Below are positions 1,306-7,184 of a DNA stretch of 7,184 nt, in pieces. This DNA comes from a virus. Lineage: Duplodnaviria; Heunggongvirae; Uroviricota; Caudoviricetes. Under the pieces are notes generated by a model that did no database searches, was not told the DNA's origin, and saw only the letters and a program-made list of their open reading frames with translations. The DNA lies in IMG/VR virus record IMGVR_UViG_2617270940_000007, positions 1 to 7,184 of that record. One strand, written 5' to 3'. A program made the translations under genes and the position numbers. Positions within the stretch are counted from its first letter, which is position 1, and the number at the start of each line of letters is the position of its first letter.

Positions 1306-1679
1306 CCTACTGCCATTACCCACACTTTCATCATTTCACGTAAACGAAGAGAAAAGCGCACCTGCCATTACTCCATACACGGAGAAGAACAATCACCAAA
1401 ACGACGGGAACAACCCAGACGAAAACACAGAGAAGAACCACCTCAAGAAGAACGAAACCACATACGCCGGTAGAGAGTACAAACCACCCATTTCACCCAC
1501 AGGAATAGTCGCCGTATTGAGCGTTATCAGAGAGAAGGTTTATGCCCACATAAGAGAGAAAATTCGAGGGAGGTATAAGTGGGAAGGGGAAGAGGGGTAT
1601 CGCTACTTTTTCCGTATAAATTCAAGCCATAGTTTTCGTCCCCCGTAACGTCCCTATCCACCCCTTCGGTCAGCCTTCG

Positions 1680-1830
1680 GGCCATCCAGGGAAAAGGCCA
1701 TGTCCCTTTTCAGGAACGGGAGCGTCGCCGCAGGGAAAAGGCTGGAGGTTTTCAGGGAAACGGTGGGAATCCCGCTGTACGAACCGGGAAAAGGCTGGCT
1801 GCCGGTCGGGAAACGGGTACATCCCGGTAC
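1680..1830. repeat. GC-rich array of ~6 degenerate direct repeats (core GGGAAA(A/C)GG, ~22-bp period); iteron-like or protein-binding array
   Basis: Units cagggaaaaggc (~1687), caggaacggg (~1711), cagggaaaaggc (~1731), cagggaaacgg (~1753), ccgggaaaaggc (~1784), cgggaaacggg (~1807); no credible ORF across it. Confidence 0.5.
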
Positions 1831-2134
1831 AGAGTGAGGGACGACTGCGGGAGCGGTGCGGGAAATCTTCGGGAGTGCGCCTTACTCTTCACTCGCCTGA
1901 AAATCGCGGGGGAGTGTCATTCCCTCTCGTGCAGCTACTGGACTCCAGTCTGCCAGACCATCATCGGGTCTCAAGCGATTTCAGTAGGTTTTCGGGGAGA
2001 AGAAAATTCTGCCCACCAGCCCCGCGGCGCGCGTAGAGCAGAATATCGTAAATACTGGCTCCCGTGTCGTTCCCGGATATTCACTGCCCAGCCTGGCTTT
2101 CCCGACATAAAATCCTTTTTCGCCTTTGTCTTAT

Positions 2135-2170
2135 TGCGATAATAACACCAATAAGTAAACAACATATTTA
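2135..2170 (+). promoter_or_regulatory. Promoter module A: extended -10 (TGcGATAAT) followed by degenerate AAACAA-N-ATTTA operator-like element
   Basis: ttgcgataataacaccaataagtaaacaacatattta aligns with modules D (4651-4686) and E (5135-5170); lies ~30 bp upstream of RBS gagga and ATG 2202. Confidence 0.4.
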
Positions 2171-2201
2171 GACGTTATAGAAACGAAGTGAGGATGAAGA
2201 G

Positions 2202-2418
2202 ATGATTAAGATGCCTGTGACGGTTGAGGTGTGGGGCGTGGATTCCCTGGCTGAGTGTCTGGATGCAGTGGGGCCGGAGTTGTACCGCAAGTTGTGGTCG
2301 TTCGTCCCGCAGAAGGGGAATCGCCCAAAGGGAAGGATATCTGGCATCTGCTGAGTGAAGATGAAAAGCGGGAGCTGGTGGACGCGGTACACAGCGAGTT
2401 CCCGGAGGACGAAGATTA
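2202..2418 (+). pseudogene. Small ORF (~72 aa if repaired) split by an apparent frameshift near 2331-2336; hypothetical protein
   Basis: RBS gagga 8 nt before ATG 2202; frame 0 gives MIKMPVTVEVWGVDSLAECLDAVGPELYRKLWSFVPQKGNRPKG then stops at 2352-2354; the -1 frame continues KDIWHLLSEDEKRELVDAVHSEFPEDED to TAA ~2416-2418. Both halves look protein-like. Below the ORF-track length cutoff. Confidence 0.3.
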
Positions 2419-2510
2419 AGAGTGAGGTCACCAGCACGGTGGCTTTTGTCGCTATTAACCTCCGGGGCAGCGCAGCACCGTAACGATATACTCTGTGGCC
2501 GTTTTCTTAC

Positions 2511-2548
2511 TGGTATTGTTTACGCAATTCAGAAAACAACATGTTTAA
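2511..2548 (+). promoter_or_regulatory. Promoter module B: extended -10 (TGgTATTGT) plus AAACA-aca-TGTTT palindrome in the 5' UTR
   Basis: ctggtattgtttacgcaattcagaaaacaacatgtttaagga; near-identical in layout to module C (2992-3037); immediately precedes RBS aagga and ATG 2559. Confidence 0.5.
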
Positions 2549-2558
2549 GGATTGCTTT

Positions 2559-2888
2559 ATGTTTGCAAATATCGACATCAACCAAATCAAGAAAATGACT
2601 CAAAAAGAGTTTGACCAGTTTTATGAGTTAGAAGGTTGGTCTTCCACGCTGATCAATTCGCGCTGGGTGCTTGAGCTGATGACTCGTGATGATGCTCCTG
2701 CTTTGATTATTTGCGACATGGGTGAAGATGCTGACTTTATGGATATGAGCGAATTTTGTGTGGACACATACAACCGCAGCCAGAAGTACTACTTCACATG
2801 CGATAGCGAGAATGACGTGATTTCTAAGCTCTATCTTCACCTTGTCCAGCATTGGGACGTGCAGGAATTCCTTGAGTTATTCGCGTAA
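2559..2888 (+). CDS. Hypothetical small acidic protein, 109 aa (cassette gene 1)
   Basis: ORF-track 2541..2888; start moved to ATG 2559 because 2541 lies inside the operator palindrome and 2559 has an aagga RBS at suitable spacing; followed by a hairpin at 2898-2920. No recognisable family. Confidence 0.6.
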   Translation: MFANIDINQIKKMTQKEFDQFYELEGWSSTLINSRWVLELMTRDDAPALIICDMGEDADFMDMSEFCVDTYNRSQKYYFTCDSENDVISKLYLHLVQHWDVQEFLELFA

Positions 2889-2897
2889 GCCCAACCA

Positions 2898-2925
2898 AAG
2901 CCAGCACCGCCTGCTGGCTTAACTT
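2898..2925 (+). terminator. Hairpin (aagccagc-accgcct-gctggctt) with weak U-tract; putative terminator of gene 1
   Basis: 8-bp inverted repeat 10 nt after the stop codon; downstream tract ttaacttctc is only moderately T-rich. Confidence 0.4.
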
Positions 2926-2991
2926 CTCTGTAGCCGTAGGGAAGAACCACCTTTAGATAATTCATGTGCCTGAGCAATATGCTTTGTAGCC

Positions 2992-3037
2992 GTTTTTACA
3001 CTGGTATTATTTACGCCATTGAGAAAACAATTTGTTT
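2992..3037 (+). promoter_or_regulatory. Promoter module C: extended -10 (TGgTATTAT) plus AAACAA-t-TTGTTT palindrome in the 5' UTR
   Basis: gccgtttttacactggtattatttacgccattgagaaaacaatttgtttacgg; homologous to module B over ~50 bp; precedes RBS ggag and ATG 3049. Confidence 0.5.
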
Positions 3038-3048
3038 ACGGAGTAGTG

Positions 3049-3360
3049 ATGAATACTTCATTGGTGCTGGGTCTTGCTGAAGGCCAGGAGAGAAAAGAAA
3101 AACCAACCTTAATGGGGCATCTCACATTGCTGGATATCGTAGCGAATGGGACTTCTATCCGTCTGTTTCGTGAAAAAGCCATTACCTTCGACGCGGGCAA
3201 TTTTACGCGCTATGTGATGGTAGTTCGTCGCCGGCGTGGAAGAGGGTGGATGTCGGTCCAGAAAATGTGGCCAGAGGACCAGCTTGAACTGGCGCTGATG
3301 GAAGCTAACCGTGTCGCCCAACAAGAGATCCAACGAGCGTCTGTTCAGGCGGTAGCTTAA
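3049..3360 (+). CDS. Hypothetical protein, 103 aa (cassette gene 2)
   Basis: ORF-track 3019..3360 begins at a TTG inside the operator; ATG 3049 preceded by ggag is the likelier start; Rho-independent terminator follows. No recognisable family. Confidence 0.55.
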   Translation: MNTSLVLGLAEGQERKEKPTLMGHLTLLDIVANGTSIRLFREKAITFDAGNFTRYVMVVRRRRGRGWMSVQKMWPEDQLELALMEANRVAQQEIQRASVQAVA

Positions 3361-3394
3361 ACATGTGCAAGCAGTAGTTAGTCGAATGTACGAC

Positions 3395-3424
3395 AGCCCC
3401 GCCAATCCTTCGGGGCTTTTTTGT
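3395..3424 (+). terminator. Rho-independent terminator (agccccg - loop - cggggct + TTTTTT)
   Basis: GC-rich 7-bp stem with ccttcgg-type loop followed directly by a six-T run, 35 nt after the gene 2 stop. Confidence 0.7.
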
Positions 3425-3449
3425 ATTGTAAGTACTTACTTATGATAAT
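3421..3449 (+). promoter_or_regulatory. Sigma70-like promoter (TTGTAT - 17 bp - GATAAT) with a perfect 12-bp palindrome GTAAGTACTTAC in the spacer
   Basis: -35 TTGTAT at 3421-3426, -10 GATAAT at 3444-3449, spacer 17 bp; palindrome at 3428-3439 overlaps the spacer (operator-like); AT-rich leader then strong RBS aggag 6 nt before ATG 3482. Confidence 0.5.
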
Positions 3450-3481
3450 AAAATTAAAAATTAAACAATAAGGAGAGTGAA

Positions 3482-3877
3482 ATGACCGTTAAACGCGAAA
3501 ATCTGACCCTGGATATGTATTATGCATCAGAGACGGAAAATGGAGACAAAGTTGCAAAAATTACAATTGTGCTACGCGATAATGCCTCCGGCGAAGAAGT
3601 TCACACCAGTACCTTAACTCGCACCGGCGAGGCGACAAAGGGGAAATATTCGGTGCGTTACCAAAGCATCAGTAATGCTTCTGACCCTTTACTGATAAAA
3701 CTGGAAACTCATTTCCGTGGCGCGGATCAGACGTTGTTTGAAAATTTGATGAAAAAGGTCGATACGGTTTATACATCGAGTTTAAATACCAATAGTACCT
3801 GGATGGGACAACACGGTCTGCGAATAATCTCCGGCGAAAAGATCGACACCATTGTCCCTGAAAGCGTATTCGCTTAA
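3482..3877 (+). CDS. Hypothetical protein, 131 aa (cassette gene 3)
   Basis: Strong RBS aggag at 3471-3475, 6 nt before the ATG; own promoter and own terminator; no recognisable family. Confidence 0.65.
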   Translation: MTVKRENLTLDMYYASETENGDKVAKITIVLRDNASGEEVHTSTLTRTGEATKGKYSVRYQSISNASDPLLIKLETHFRGADQTLFENLMKKVDTVYTSSLNTNSTWMGQHGLRIISGEKIDTIVPESVFA

Positions 3878-3886
3878 TCCTCTTTG

Positions 3887-3916
3887 AATGGCGCGTAAAC
3901 CGCGCCATTTTCTTAT
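3887..3916 (+). terminator. Rho-independent terminator (aatggcgcg-taaac-cgcgccatt + T-rich tract)
   Basis: Perfect 9-bp inverted repeat 10 nt after the gene 3 stop, followed by ttttcttatg. Confidence 0.65.
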
Positions 3917-3921
3917 GTCCG

Positions 3922-3936
3922 ATAACAATTTGTTTT
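3922..3936 (+). promoter_or_regulatory. Operator-like palindrome AACAA-t-TTGTT (copy F of the conserved motif) upstream of gene 4
   Basis: gataacaatttgttttctg matches the core palindrome of modules B-E; the -10 context differs (GATAAC abuts the palindrome), so the promoter assignment is less certain. Confidence 0.35.
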
Positions 3937-3994
3937 CTGCCTTATCTGATTTGTGAAAATGATTTCACTGAAGCAACTTAATAAGGAAACCATC

Positions 3995-4369
3995 ATGGGA
4001 CTTGATATATATATCGAGACGCAGCCTAAAAACGATCTGAATAACGAGGCATCCAGAAAGCAGGTTGCTTACTTCCGTAAGTTCAATGCGCTCGTTGGGT
4101 GGATGGAGCGCAACGTAGGTGAAGTCGAAAATTGTGAGCTTTTAGAATTAACGATGAATGACATTTGTTTTCTGAAGGCTCATTTGATGCACATAAACGA
4201 AAGTAATTGCGAAGAGTACTTGCCTACCCAGGAAGGTTCTTTCTTCGGCAGTCAGGAGTACGATGAAGGTTACTGGCATGATGTGGGGGAGTTGAAAGAG
4301 ATTGTGGAAGATCTGATTAAGAACCACGACTTTCACAATAATAGACTGACCTTCTGCGCCTGGTGGTAA
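3995..4369 (+). CDS. Hypothetical acidic protein, 124 aa (cassette gene 4)
   Basis: ORF-track 3953..4369 starts at GTG with no RBS; ATG 3995 has aagga 7 nt upstream; stop TAA overlaps the start of the next small ORF (taaatATG). Confidence 0.55.
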   Translation: MGLDIYIETQPKNDLNNEASRKQVAYFRKFNALVGWMERNVGEVENCELLELTMNDICFLKAHLMHINESNCEEYLPTQEGSFFGSQEYDEGYWHDVGELKEIVEDLIKNHDFHNNRLTFCAWW

Positions 4370-4371
4370 AT

Positions 4372-4515
4372 ATGGGCGATTTCAAGAAACGCCTGAAGGA
4401 GAGAGCCGAGATGGTCAGAAAGCGAAACGCCTCTTCTGTCATAAGATACGCAAGGCAGTTTAGTCGCAACAACAAATCAGTTGAGGAAAAGATCCTTAGC
4501 GTAATCGGGCGATAA
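4372..4515 (+). CDS. Small basic ORF, 47 aa (or 34 aa from internal ATG 4411 with strong RBS aaggagag); possible coupled partner of gene 4
   Basis: MGDFKKRLKERAEMVRKRNASSVIRYARQFSRNNKSVEEKILSVIGR; start overlaps the upstream stop; internal ATG at 4411 has a strong SD at 7-nt spacing; Lys/Arg-rich; followed by hairpin 4521-4544. Below ORF-track cutoff. Confidence 0.3.
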   Translation: MGDFKKRLKERAEMVRKRNASSVIRYARQFSRNNKSVEEKILSVIGR

Positions 4516-4520
4516 TTATT

Positions 4521-4544
4521 AAGGCCACCAGCATTGGTGGTCTT
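4521..4544. repeat. Hairpin repeat copy 1 (aaggccacca-gcat-tggtggtctt) carrying a Chi octamer on the minus strand
   Basis: 10-bp arms with one G:T position, 4-nt loop; flanked by ttaaatgac; near-identical element at 4992-5015 with inverted loop; ccaccagc (complement of Chi GCTGGTGG) at 4525-4532. Confidence 0.6.
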
Positions 4545-4650
4545 AAATGACTTTTAATAACCGAAGGTTAGTTTGAAACCTGGCTATCAACTTCCAGAAC
4601 CTTTCTTGTGTATTCAGCCTGTATTAACTTCTTTTATGTCTTATCTACAC

Positions 4651-4686
4651 TGCGATAATTACACCAACAAGAAAACAATATGTTTA
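4651..4686 (+). promoter_or_regulatory. Promoter module D: extended -10 (TGcGATAAT) plus AAACA-ata-TGTTT palindrome in the 5' UTR
   Basis: tgcgataattacaccaacaagaaaacaatatgtttacgc; homologous to modules A and E; followed by RBS gagga (4693-4697) and ATG 4705. Confidence 0.5.
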
Positions 4687-4704
4687 CGCAGTGAGGATAT
4701 GCTC

Positions 4705-4986
4705 ATGACTGATTTCACCATTACCCCTAAAGCACAAAATGTATTCCTTGAATCATGGCTGGACTTGCCGGAAACAGAACAGCAAGAAATGGATCATGTG
4801 GAATATGACGAGCAGGTAAGCACGCGATTCTTCCACTTTGAGGGCTGCGTTTACGACATTGCCAACTTCATGCGAGATGACCGCTTCCCTGAATGGCACG
4901 CAAGCTATCCACTAAACGCCTTCGCCATGCTGATGATCCGTGTGGATGATTCAGGGGATACCATCGACATCGGTCTGCTCCACTAA
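4705..4986 (+). CDS. Hypothetical small acidic protein, 93 aa (cassette gene 5)
   Basis: ORF-track 4573..4986 would run through the promoter/operator; ATG 4705 lies 7 nt after gagga (ATG 4699 is too close to the SD). Protein MTDFTITPKAQNVFLESWLDLPETEQQEMDHVEYDEQ... is Asp/Glu-rich. No recognisable family. Confidence 0.6.
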   Translation: MTDFTITPKAQNVFLESWLDLPETEQQEMDHVEYDEQVSTRFFHFEGCVYDIANFMRDDRFPEWHASYPLNAFAMLMIRVDDSGDTIDIGLLH

Positions 4987-4991
4987 AGAGT

Positions 4992-5015
4992 AAGGCCACC
5001 AATGCTGGTGGCCTT
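4992..5015. repeat. Hairpin repeat copy 2 (aaggccacca-atgc-tggtggcctt) carrying a Chi octamer on the plus strand
   Basis: Perfect 10-bp arms; loop atgc is the reverse complement of the copy-1 loop gcat; GCTGGTGG at 5004-5011; followed by ttaaatgac as in copy 1. Confidence 0.6.
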
Positions 5016-5116
5016 AAATGACCATCCTGTTTTCTGCAGGCTAAAAACACCAACCTCTTACCTCCAGGCAACCGACAAACCCACCTGTTCCCGTCCGGCT
5101 ACCGCAACTTTCCACT

Positions 5117-5170
5117 TTGACGCCTTATTCGTACAACGATAATTAACACAAACAAGAAAACAATTTGTTA
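5117..5170 (+). promoter_or_regulatory. Promoter module E: TTGACG -35-like, cGATAAT -10, then AAACAA-t-TTGTTA palindrome in the 5' UTR
   Basis: ttgacgccttattcgtacaacgataattaacacaaacaagaaaacaatttgttatttacg; homologous to modules A and D; RBS aagga (5179-5183) 7 nt before ATG 5191. Confidence 0.5.
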
Positions 5171-5190
5171 TTTACGATAAGGAATTAATC

Positions 5191-5673
5191 ATGAATTTTA
5201 TCGCTACTGTAAACGCACCCGCACATGGCAATATCGCTGTAACGTTCTCTGACATTGAAAAACGAGTACTTGGTGCATGGCGCGACAATGAGACGGTAGA
5301 ACTGTCAGCACAAGAAAAATGCATTATTGCACGCGACATCATTGGCAATCGTCGTTACTCGCGGGTATTTGAGAAAGCATATGTGGTAAATTCTGGATTC
5401 GGAACGTTCGTCTTTCCGGTGCGCTCCGGGCGATTCTGCCAGTCCAAGCTGATTGAGTTCGCTACGCAGATTTCTGTCTGGATTAAAACTCAATCGTCGT
5501 TCAAATTTTCCGACGATGAAGCAGTATCGCAGGGGATGCGGATCGCCAACAATGCAATAAAATGCAAAAACATTACGTATGCCGCTGGCGTTGACACATG
5601 GAAACTGTTTTGCGCTAACTTTATGCTGAATGTATACGCAAGCAACCGCATCCACATCCTTGATGGCGTGTAA
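5191..5673 (+). CDS. Hypothetical protein, 160 aa (cassette gene 6)
   Basis: Good RBS, own promoter module, and a hairpin terminator immediately downstream; no recognisable family. Confidence 0.65.
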   Translation: MNFIATVNAPAHGNIAVTFSDIEKRVLGAWRDNETVELSAQEKCIIARDIIGNRRYSRVFEKAYVVNSGFGTFVFPVRSGRFCQSKLIEFATQISVWIKTQSSFKFSDDEAVSQGMRIANNAIKCKNITYAAGVDTWKLFCANFMLNVYASNRIHILDGV

Positions 5674-5676
5674 CTG

Positions 5677-5706
5677 AGAAGAGGGCCAGAAACGGCCCTT
5701 TCTCTA
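5677..5706 (+). terminator. Rho-independent terminator (agggcc-agaaac-ggccct + tttctct)
   Basis: GC-rich stem 4 nt after the stop codon, followed by a T-rich tract. Confidence 0.6.
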
Positions 5707-5716
5707 TAGCCACCAG

Positions 5717-5900
5717 CTGCCGCAGGGAAATTTTCAGAAACGGCGAGGAACGCATTCATGAGCCGAAGGGAAACGACCATGAAATTTTCTGGAAACGGCG
5801 GGGGGCGCCTTTATGTAGAAAACTGAGCGGGAGAAACCCGGAATCGCGCCAGAAATTGCGTAGCGGCGCTGGGGCAGCGCTGGTGGGGTTTCAGCCCCTG
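5717..5900. repeat. Second GC-rich repeat block (GGGAAA / GAAACGG units), homologous to the 1680-1830 array
   Basis: gccgcagggaaa...ttttcagaaacggcg matches gccgcagggaaaaggctggaggttttcagggaaacggtg in array 1, as if with a ~10-bp deletion; shared gggccatccag motif (1677-1687 and ~5892-5902); Chi octamers at both edges (5710-5717 minus strand, 5879-5886 plus strand). Confidence 0.45.
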
Positions 5901-6088
5901 GGCCATCCAGATAGCTTTCGCTATGTGATTATGTGAATCCGTGGGTAAATCACTGTAAGCGCGTACACGTTGCCCAACGTGGCAATCATATGCGAGCGGA
6001 TACAAAACAACACAAAGAGCCGATCCGCGCCGACAAATAAATGCGGATCACATAGCAAGACTAAAAGCCAATGATTAACCATACTCTA

Positions 6089-6109
6089 TAGCGCAATATA
6101 ACGCGTTTT
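6089..6109. repeat. Hairpin (taacgcg-ttttaag-cgcgtta)
   Basis: Perfect 7-bp inverted repeat in an AT-rich intergenic region; member of a local family of GCGC-stem hairpins. Confidence 0.4.
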
Positions 6110-6216
6110 AAGCGCGTTAATGTGTTAAGTAATGGGTATGTACTGACAAGGATATAAAAGCGCGTCTATGGCGTTATTTTGGTGCTTATTTTTATGTTGT
6201 TGGAGCGAGTTAAAGA

Positions 6217-6246
6217 CAATAAAAAACGCGCCAATGATGGCGCGTT
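6217..6246 (-). terminator. Hairpin (aacgcgcc-aatgat-ggcgcgtt) followed by a T-run on the minus strand; second of two tandem minus-strand terminators
   Basis: Perfect 8-bp stem; on the minus strand the stem is followed directly by TTTTTT (plus-strand aaaaaa at 6221-6226). Confidence 0.5.
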
Positions 6247-6265
6247 ATGGTGGGAGTATTGGAAA

Positions 6266-6290
6266 CGAAAAAAGCGCCCATAGTGGGCGC
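6266..6290 (-). terminator. Rho-independent terminator of the 76-aa minus-strand gene (gcgccca-tag-tgggcgc + TTTTTT)
   Basis: Perfect 7-bp stem 6274-6290, followed on the minus strand by six T; lies 7 nt past the stop codon (6297-6299) of the 6297..6527 gene; the same 17-bp palindrome recurs at 6547-6563. Confidence 0.7.
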
Positions 6291-6296
6291 TCGATT

Positions 6297-6527
6297 TTAT
6301 TTGTGTAAACTAATTTTGAATCCCATTTCTACAAACGCTTTTAACATTAAAAATATATCAGCGTCATTCACGTCTGCTTTTTTTCGCTCCTGGTCGTTCA
6401 ATAAGTCAATTTTGCGCGTTGTTTCATTTATAAACTCGACTGCGCGCCCAGCGATCCCAGCGATCCCAGCGATGCGATTAACATAATATTCATTATGGAC
6501 GTTAACGCCAGCGATAAGAACAAACAT
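6297..6527 (-). CDS. Hypothetical small protein, 76 aa, containing an in-frame (IAG)x3 tandem repeat
   Basis: Minus-strand ORF with strong SD aaggag 7 nt before the ATG; bracketed by two identical 17-bp hairpins (6274-6290 and 6547-6563); terminator downstream. No recognisable family. Confidence 0.55.
   Translation of the reverse strand: MFVLIAGVNVHNEYYVNRIAGIAGIAGRAVEFINETTRKIDLLNDQERKKADVNDADIFLMLKAFVEMGFKISLHK
6447..6473. repeat. Perfect 9-bp tandem repeat (cccagcgat)x3 inside the 76-aa gene
   Basis: Three head-to-tail copies; on the coding (minus) strand atcgctggg x3 encodes Ile-Ala-Gly x3, so copy-number change would preserve frame. Confidence 0.8.
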
Positions 6528-6546
6528 GATTAAGCTCCTTAAAACT

Positions 6547-6563
6547 AGCGCCCATAGTGGGCG
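6547..6563. repeat. Second copy of the 17-bp palindrome gcgcccatagtgggcgc, between the two minus-strand genes
   Basis: Identical to 6274-6290; sits between the stop of the upstream minus-strand fragment (6578) and the SD/ATG (6527) of the 76-aa gene. Confidence 0.6.
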
Positions 6564-6577
6564 CTATATCCATCTAA

Positions 6578-6837
6578 TTACGCTTTGAAAGCATCAGCCA
6601 GATAGTTATAAAAATCATTTTTAACGAAGCGATATTGCTGTGATCCGTTTTTCGCTGCACCCATTCCTTTGATTTTTTCGACCAGTCCCAGACGTTCGCA
6701 AAGATTGATAAGCTGGTTGGCTTGAGTGTATCCTGCGTCTAATTTTATTTCGTTGGCTTTTTTCGCTTCATTCATTAAATCGAAAACAGCGCCATTGGTG
6801 AACGTGTCGATCTCGTCGTTAATCATATCGATTAATG
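6578..6837 (-). pseudogene. 3' fragment of a gene truncated at its 5' end by IS1 insertion; hypothetical protein, tentatively phage antirepressor-like C-terminal region
   Basis: Minus-strand frame stays open from the ORF-track Met (6826) up to the IS1 boundary (6837) with no stop, so the ORF runs into the IS; the antirepressor resemblance is an impression from memory only. Confidence 0.45.
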
Positions 6838-6892
6838 GGTGATGCTGCCAACTTACTGATTTAGTGTATGATGGTGTTTTTGAGGTGCTCCA

Positions 6893-7168
6893 GTGGCTTC
6901 TGTTTCTATCAGCTGTCCCTCCTGTTCAGCTACTGACGGGGTGGTGCGTAACGGCAAAAGCACTGCCGGACATCAGCGCTATCTCTGCTCTCATTGCCGT
7001 AAAACATGGCAACTACAGTTCACTTACACCGCCTCTCAGCCCGGTACGCACCAGAAAATCATTGATATGGCCATGAATGGCGTTGGATGCCGGGCAACTG
7101 CCCGCATTATGGGCGTTGGCCTCAACACGATTTTACGTCACTTAAAAAACTCAGGCCGCAGTCGGTAA
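6893..7168 (+). CDS. insA: IS1 InsA (transposition repressor / N-terminal part of the InsAB' transposase), 91 aa
   Basis: [91 protein letters not shown]; GTG start at 6893; zinc-finger-like CxxC...CxxC motif. Confidence 0.92.
7144..7150 (+). other. IS1 A6C -1 frameshift motif (insA to insB', gives InsAB' transposase)
   Basis: aaaaaac near the 3' end of insA, the established IS1 frameshift position; the insB' frame continues beyond the window. Confidence 0.7.
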
Positions 7169-7184
7169 CCTCGCGCATACAACC

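Follow-up and report, generated by a model that had tools for sequence, protein, structure and literature searches.

Short in-frame variable-number tandem repeats (VNTRs) are found in bacterial, plasmid and prophage genes, and loci of this type with 6-9-bp units serve as markers when Salmonella and E. coli are typed by MLVA. In Moxon-type simple-sequence contingency loci, also described as phase-variable genes, slippage at a coding repeat changes the product. Interruptions are known to stabilise repeats, as do AGG in the CGG tracts of FMR1 and CAT in the CAG tracts of SCA1.

Here we analysed a stretch of 7,184 nucleotides of phage DNA (hereafter called the window), in which a small gene harbours three in-frame copies of a 9-bp unit. 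With MLVA-type VNTRs, this locus shares head-to-tail units, whole-unit copy differences, a preserved reading frame and its location on a mobile element, but its array is very short (1-4 units) and little polymorphic, and it encodes the most conserved motif of a protein family rather than a low-complexity linker. Like contingency loci, it has a repeat inside a coding region where slippage would change the product; unlike them, its tract is too short, it entails no frameshift or on/off effect, and one length dominates. As in FMR1 and SCA1, the interrupted allele, which carries GGT-TAC, is unchanged, here in 374 complete records, whereas the pure allele varies; the setting differs, with a bacterial plasmid, a 9-bp unit, only three units, and neither an expansion bias nor a disease-type threshold. 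Our literature search for tandem repeats in SSU5 phage-plasmids found no paper. We consider the tract likely to be a short in-frame VNTR, driven by slippage and stabilised by a three-base interruption, in a real small gene of SSU5/pHCM2-like phage-plasmids that is under purifying selection.

The repeat tract and its gene

The features of the window discussed below are as follows, with the basis of each call in brackets.

6447..6473, minus strand: perfect 9-bp tandem repeat, three copies (Tandem Repeats Finder, sequence, ORF translation, resampling)
6507..6515, minus strand: dispersed near-copy of the unit, gccagcgat (coding strand ATCGCTGGC), 8/9 matches (sequence, translation)
6297..6527, minus strand: 76-aa gene of the orphan family phrog_1585, MFVLIAGVNVHNEYYVNRIAGIAGIAGRAVEF..., MFVLIAGVNVHNEYYVNRIAGIAGIAGRAVEFINETTRK... 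(ORF list)
6535..6540, minus strand: Shine-Dalgarno sequence AAGGAG, 7 nt upstream of the ATG (sequence, alignment of 37 loci)
6272..6292, minus strand: terminator-like site, a hairpin then a T-run, immediately past the small gene's stop codon (terminator scan)
6547..6565, no strand assigned: 19-bp GC-rich hairpin AGCGCCCATAGTGGGCGCT, upstream of the gene (sequence, alignment)
6378..6384, minus strand: A7 homopolymer of the coding strand (ERKKAD; T7 on the plus strand) (truncated clusters, locus L033)
6578..6837, minus strand: C-terminal remnant of a 216-aa phrog_1513 gene (ORF list, intact gene in locus L001)

Tandem Repeats Finder reported a single array in the window, at 6447-6473, with a period of 9, 3.0 copies, 100% matches and the consensus CCCAGCGAT, in agreement with the raw sequence. 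On the minus strand the unit ATCGCTGGG reads ATC-GCT-GGG, three times and in frame with ORF 6297..6527, and the three units encode Ile-Ala-Gly x3, residues 19-27 of the 76-aa protein. Both the three perfect copies of the 9-mer and the three Ile-Ala-Gly triplets had been described exactly in the original prediction. The run of 18 consecutive period-9 matches is the longest repeat signal of the window when periods 4 to 30 are compared, and it was reached in none of 2000 resamples from a first-order Markov model, whose longest runs averaged 6.2 and never exceeded 12. The near-copy at 6507-6515 encodes another IAG at residues 5-7, in strand 1 of the predicted fold (see below). Unit junctions create GATC sequences (Dam sites) at 6453-6456 and 6462-6465, 9 bp apart, such that n perfect units yield n-1 sites with a spacing of 9 bp. 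The common interruption GGTTAC removes the second GATC, and Klebsiella-type alleles (CGG-ATC) have a third site.

The 76-aa ORF appears to be a real gene under purifying selection, because a strong ribosome-binding site, AAGGAG, lies 7 nt before its ATG, the pooled pN/pS is 0.25 (37 distinct CDS; dN/dS about 0.25), and distant homologs exist at 27-45% identity. The AAGGAG is conserved across all homologous loci in an alignment of 37 loci. The same 19-bp hairpin is found on both sides of the gene, at 6273-6291 and 6547-6565, as direct repeats, and its upstream copy probably marks a cassette boundary. In one locus (L032) the hairpin is inverted, and many lineages have an AT-rich spacer in its place.

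Upstream, some SSU5-like plasmids have an additional inserted gene, a 75-aa paralog (DIAGLAGYALS). In pNT1F34-108k (L073 720-1060), where this paralog reads MVIFISGVNINNHTLVYDIAGLAGYALS..., the same hairpin with AAGGAG precedes each gene copy. The gene thus seems to behave as a small hairpin-bounded cassette, and the arrangement looks like a cassette array. In Klebsiella-type alleles (L024/L025/L031 and L070), the first ~10 residues, MVIFISGVNI, are those of the paralog (L073 772-999), unlike in E. coli-type orthologs; this N-terminus suggests that paralog and ortholog have undergone gene conversion.

The A7 tract is a second putative slippage-prone site, whose frameshifted alleles exist but seem rare. 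In a large protein collection, frameshifts in this tract account for many truncated clusters of 45-56 aa (P0065-P0078, of which P0067 has 42 members), and the IMG/VR locus L033 has A6. A role of the A7 tract as a phase-variation site is unsupported, with one A6 and no A8 allele among complete E. coli genomes.

Genomic context

The window is part of an SSU5/pHCM2-like phage-plasmid of Enterobacteriaceae, a group described previously (PMC7969092). Positions 1306-6837 correspond to positions 4207-9738 of locus L001, with 99.93% identity to the E. coli plasmid pYUXYEH3934-1. The homologous region is found on plasmids of ~100-115 kb, nearly all non-mobilizable, that encode a phage terminase, ParB proteins and a helicase; it matched 222 PLSDB plasmids, 216 of them non-mobilizable. 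The region is also present in phages Cyrano, PhiR41_1 and CMS-2020a, and the pHCM2 homolog, from S. Typhi, is protein P0057. A scan of GTDB with one genome per species yielded one locus only, in a probable mis-binned MAG. This 29.6-kb contig (L037; JAEWTL010000044.1, 'MAG: Bacillota bacterium') codes for a protein 100% identical to that of the window, and its DNA is 98.6% identical to the window over 936 bp; it is most likely a mis-binned enterobacterial phage-plasmid contig.

Insertion sequences occupy both ends of the window. The left end, 1-1305, is IS2 (InsC/InsD ORFs; terminal repeat at ~1291-1305), and an IS1 starts at 6838 (IRL GGTGATGCTGCCAACTTACTGAT; InsA ORF 6893-7168) and covers 6838-7184. 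The IS1 cuts the 216-aa gene located upstream of the small gene, leaving its last 82 codons; the gene is intact in L001. The 5.5-kb phage-plasmid segment bracketed by IS2 and IS1 might be mobilised as a composite unit. Positions 1306-2540 form a region of ~1.2 kb without a convincing ORF, whose counterpart in pYUXYEH3934-1 (L001 ~3500-5100) carries no annotated feature. A search of the whole window against Rfam, this region included, gave no family at the gathering threshold.

More distant homologs of the small gene lie in phage early, replication or moron regions. Their sites include positions divergent from a Cro-like gene, after a primase gene, after a DnaB helicase gene, beside ribonucleotide reductase and glutaredoxin genes, and near a portal gene.

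Protein family and predicted fold

The protein is a full-length member of phrog_1585 (PHROGs v4), its residues 1-76 aligning with profile positions 1-75 of 75 at E = 1.5e-36. A profile search of 1.84 billion representative proteins collected homologs of 74-87 aa at 27-45% identity. Conservation in the family alignment peaks at the block IAG-IAG-(Y/F)A-(G/A)-S, with an invariant G24 and almost no change at A20, G21 and A23. Given this conservation, the interrupted form IAG-IAG-YAG is taken to be ancestral, and the perfect triplicate of the window to be derived and homogenised. The derived change in the lineage of the window is Tyr25 to Ile, from GGT-TAC to GGG-ATC. By this comparison the repeat is no recent duplication but an ancient conserved motif that has been homogenised.

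AlphaFold2 run with a diverse alignment yielded a model with a pLDDT of 93.5 and a pTM of 0.79; with a shallow alignment of close homologs it gave no confident model (pLDDT 44), and the confident one was obtained only once the distant homologs of the profile search had been included. The model comprises a strand at residues 2-6, a helix at 13-23, a loop at 24-29, two strands at 30-34 and 37-41, two helices at 45-50 and 55-67, and a last strand at 71-75. The family is thus predicted with high confidence to adopt a ferredoxin-like beta-alpha-beta-beta-alpha-beta fold. According to this model, residues 19-27 make up the last turns of helix 1 and the loop that leads into strand 2. Gain or loss of a unit would alter the end of helix 1 and the length of the loop, which we assume to be tolerated, and the one-unit form, with six residues fewer in helix 1 and the loop, may have lost its function.

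No Pfam match was obtained at E <= 1 for the protein or 32 family members, and none was obtained for its neighbours. In a sequence-profile search of the PDB, the only match was a weak one to methionine aminopeptidase (E = 0.01), which we judged to be due to chance. Foldseek searches of the PDB and BFVD returned nothing below E = 0.02 (E >= 0.025). The predicted fold is shared with small ACT/RAM-like ferredoxin-like domains, but this is a very common fold, and the protein differs from ACT domains (Pfam PF01842 and relatives) in the lack of a sequence-profile match, with no Pfam, PDB or NCBI-type family match, and from ACT/RAM-like domains by Foldseek E values of at least 0.025 and the lack of a known ligand-binding motif. 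A reading of IAGIAG as the GxxG of a KH domain was dropped, given the predicted beta-alpha-beta-beta-alpha-beta arrangement with no helix-GxxG-helix, as was the idea of a transmembrane protein or a toxin, prompted by the hydrophobic N-terminus, because residues 2-6 are predicted to form a beta-strand.

In one homolog, P0080, every Ala is replaced by Val, Arg by Cys, Thr by Ile or Met, and His by Tyr. This pattern corresponds to systematic C-to-T changes, as expected if the assembled DNA had been treated with bisulfite or was heavily deaminated, and not to a natural variant.

Copy-number alleles

Comparison of copy number across relatives, the check proposed with the original prediction, revealed perfect tracts of 1, 2, 3 or 4 units in related plasmids, differing by in-frame 9-bp steps and coding for proteins of 70, 73, 76 and 79 aa; protein clusters likewise include forms of these four lengths. 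The array therefore shows the two hallmarks of a VNTR, short head-to-tail units and whole-unit copy differences among isolates, and the length variation among isolates that had been anticipated does occur. One instance is plasmid ET300, identical to the window over 281 bp except for having 2 units. Inspection of the DNA confirmed a 1-unit allele in 13 contigs, with four different samples behind the four places that were read, and 4 perfect units in K. pneumoniae CP052393 (pC17KP0040-1). In every variant the reading frame and the whole C-terminus are retained.

The commonest tract in relatives is interrupted, ATCGCTGGG-ATCGCTGGT-TACGCTGGG, coding for IAG-IAG-YAG. In a set of 58 loci from IMG/VR, GTDB and metagenomes, 36 have this form, 17 have the perfect three-unit form and 2 a perfect two-unit form. 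The last two belong to an E. coli-type and a Klebsiella-type lineage, respectively, each beside three-unit sisters. Interrupted tracts of other lengths are occasionally found in draft genomes, namely a 2-unit form, ATCGCTGGT-TACGCTGGG (IAG-YAG), in 22 contigs, and a 4-unit form (IAGx3-YAG).

Complete assemblies produced independently of one another, with origins in China, Ecuador, the UK and other places, contain the same two-unit allele, which is also present in Klebsiella; two-unit alleles lie on at least three flank haplotypes. The three sequenced E. coli two-unit alleles have different flank haplotypes, each resembling a different three-unit plasmid, which points to recurrent events or to recombination; a contraction that arose once could be carried onto several flank haplotypes by exchange between alleles and so mimic recurrent slippage. 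We also observed an off-register 9-bp deletion, TGGGCGCGC, between CGC microhomologies at the equivalent of ~6441-6449, that yields IAGIAG-IAVEF. It is present in P0010 and P0048, i.e., in both E. coli-type and Klebsiella-type lineages.

Dependence of length variation on tract perfection

Perfect and interrupted tracts were counted separately, using short queries that can each seed on one tract type only. The 74 perfect tracts of PLSDB comprise 64 with three units, 1 with four and 9 with two, and the 17 of complete RefSeq E. coli genomes comprise 15 with three units and 2 with two. All interrupted tracts have three units, both in PLSDB (171 records) and in complete RefSeq E. coli (203 records). 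Length variants thus represent 10/74 and 2/17 perfect tracts, versus 0/171 and 0/203 interrupted ones, the interrupted tract being unchanged in 374/374 complete records. Fisher tests gave P = 4e-6 for PLSDB and 0.006 for RefSeq; six of the nine PLSDB two-unit records are one 52,356-bp plasmid clone, and P = 0.002 after this six-member clone was collapsed. The records are phylogenetically non-independent, making these P values only indicative, and the support for instability is wholly comparative.

In complete plasmid records, variants make up ~12-14% of the alleles with a perfect tract and ~3-4% when all alleles are counted. The idea that perfect 9-mer copies are prone to copy-number change is borne out for perfect tracts (10/74 and 2/17), but the variation is infrequent and, in complete records, does not extend to interrupted tracts (0/374). 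The polymorphism is real, of low frequency and concentrated in the pure tract, as slipped-strand mispairing predicts, and these counts fit a role of interruptions as tract stabilisers.

Probable homogenisation of the units

Unit turnover may also have left traces over longer times. Across the seven lineages whose genes contain IAG-IAG, 15 of 21 synonymous positions are identical between units 1 and 2. The codons of the units differ between lineages and are shared within them (ATCGCTGGG, ATAGCCGGA, ATTGCAGGT, ATTGCCGGA and others). When units were paired between lineages, the mean was 7.2 matches, and in 1854 derangements the count always stayed below 15; from local codon usage, 7.9 matches would be expected against the 15 observed (P = 0.0013). 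For the Ala codon, the two units agree in every lineage (7/7; P = 3e-4). With the small sample of only 7 lineages, this codon sharing suggests long-term unit turnover by slippage or conversion that homogenises the units.

Discussion

What drives the copy-number differences can be weighed against several other explanations. The tract might be a programmed contingency locus, in which rapid and reversible copy change tunes a phage early protein, e.g., an anti-defence or host-takeover factor. Its location within the most conserved motif of the family, the DNA-level homogenisation of units in seven divergent lineages, the early, replication or moron positions of homologs and the allelic series of 1-4 units speak for such a role. 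However, the tract has three units only and its changes are in frame, with no on/off effect, ~86-88% of perfect-tract alleles (64/74 and 15/17) still have 3 units, and most of the population is interrupted and stable (374/374 complete records). The sequences compared revealed neither an on/off or frame switch nor high-frequency reversible switching, and we regard this explanation as improbable. We are similarly sceptical of a related proposal, that selection across a widespread family of small phage proteins keeps IAG-IAG-(Y/I)AG repetitive at the DNA level so that gain or loss of 3-residue units at the end of helix 1 acts as a 'tuning knob' on a binding surface of an early, possibly anti-defence protein; its support would come from the homogenised units of all lineages examined. 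The length variants might also stem from exchange among alleles or paralogs, by homologous recombination or gene conversion and not by replication slippage, as the mosaic flanks, the tandem paralog cassette of some plasmids and the paralog-like N-terminus of the Klebsiella type would suggest. Nevertheless, recombining alleles that are equal in length cannot yield new lengths, an unequal exchange inside 27 bp would resemble slippage in its mechanism, and the dependence on tract perfection fits both mechanisms; we regard this explanation, too, as improbable.

It is very improbable that the repeat is primarily a DNA element, such as a protein-binding iteron or a cluster of Dam/GATC sites, in an incidental ORF. 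The junction GATCs, n-1 for n units, of which GGTTAC removes one, would be in keeping with such an element, but the ORF is under purifying selection, its product has a high-confidence predicted fold, no Rfam match was found in the window, and distant homologs keep the motif as protein with other codons and no GATC (ATAGCCGGA, ATTGCAGGT and others). Least credible of all is that the copy-number differences are assembly or sequencing artefacts. Some variants of the large protein collection do come from draft or metagenome assemblies, and the frameshifted A-tract variants frequent in that collection are nearly absent from complete genomes. Yet every read is long enough to span a 27-bp tract by a wide margin, every change is an exact multiple of 9 bp, the same 2-unit allele was assembled independently in complete sequences from several countries and in Klebsiella, and the four places read among the 13 contigs with the 1-unit allele represent four different samples.

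The reading we favour, a slippage-driven VNTR in a genuine small gene, would involve the following steps. The ancestral IAG-IAG-(Y/F)A would sit at the C-terminal end of helix 1 in a ferredoxin-like domain. In the lineage of the window, the third unit would have been homogenised (GGT-TAC to GGG-ATC), giving a perfect repeat of 27 bp. Such perfect tracts change by whole 9-bp units, which yields the 70-, 73-, 76- and 79-aa isoforms, most likely by slipped-strand mispairing at replication, a step that we infer. The interrupted tract, found in most of the population, is much more stable. As a best guess, we take the length variants to be neutral to mildly harmful changes in an accessory phage early-region protein, with no programmed switch.

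We conclude that the tract is an ordinary low-frequency slippage polymorphism, a fresh case of the familiar short in-frame VNTR that leaves the understanding of repeat instability unchanged. It offers a natural comparison of pure and interrupted repeats at one site, with about 1 in 8 pure tracts changed versus 0/374 interrupted ones. SSU5-like phage-plasmids are common in clinical E. coli and Klebsiella, sometimes with resistance genes, and the locus is a possible sub-typing marker for them. As for the protein itself, the orphan family phrog_1585 gains a confident predicted fold and a defined conserved motif.
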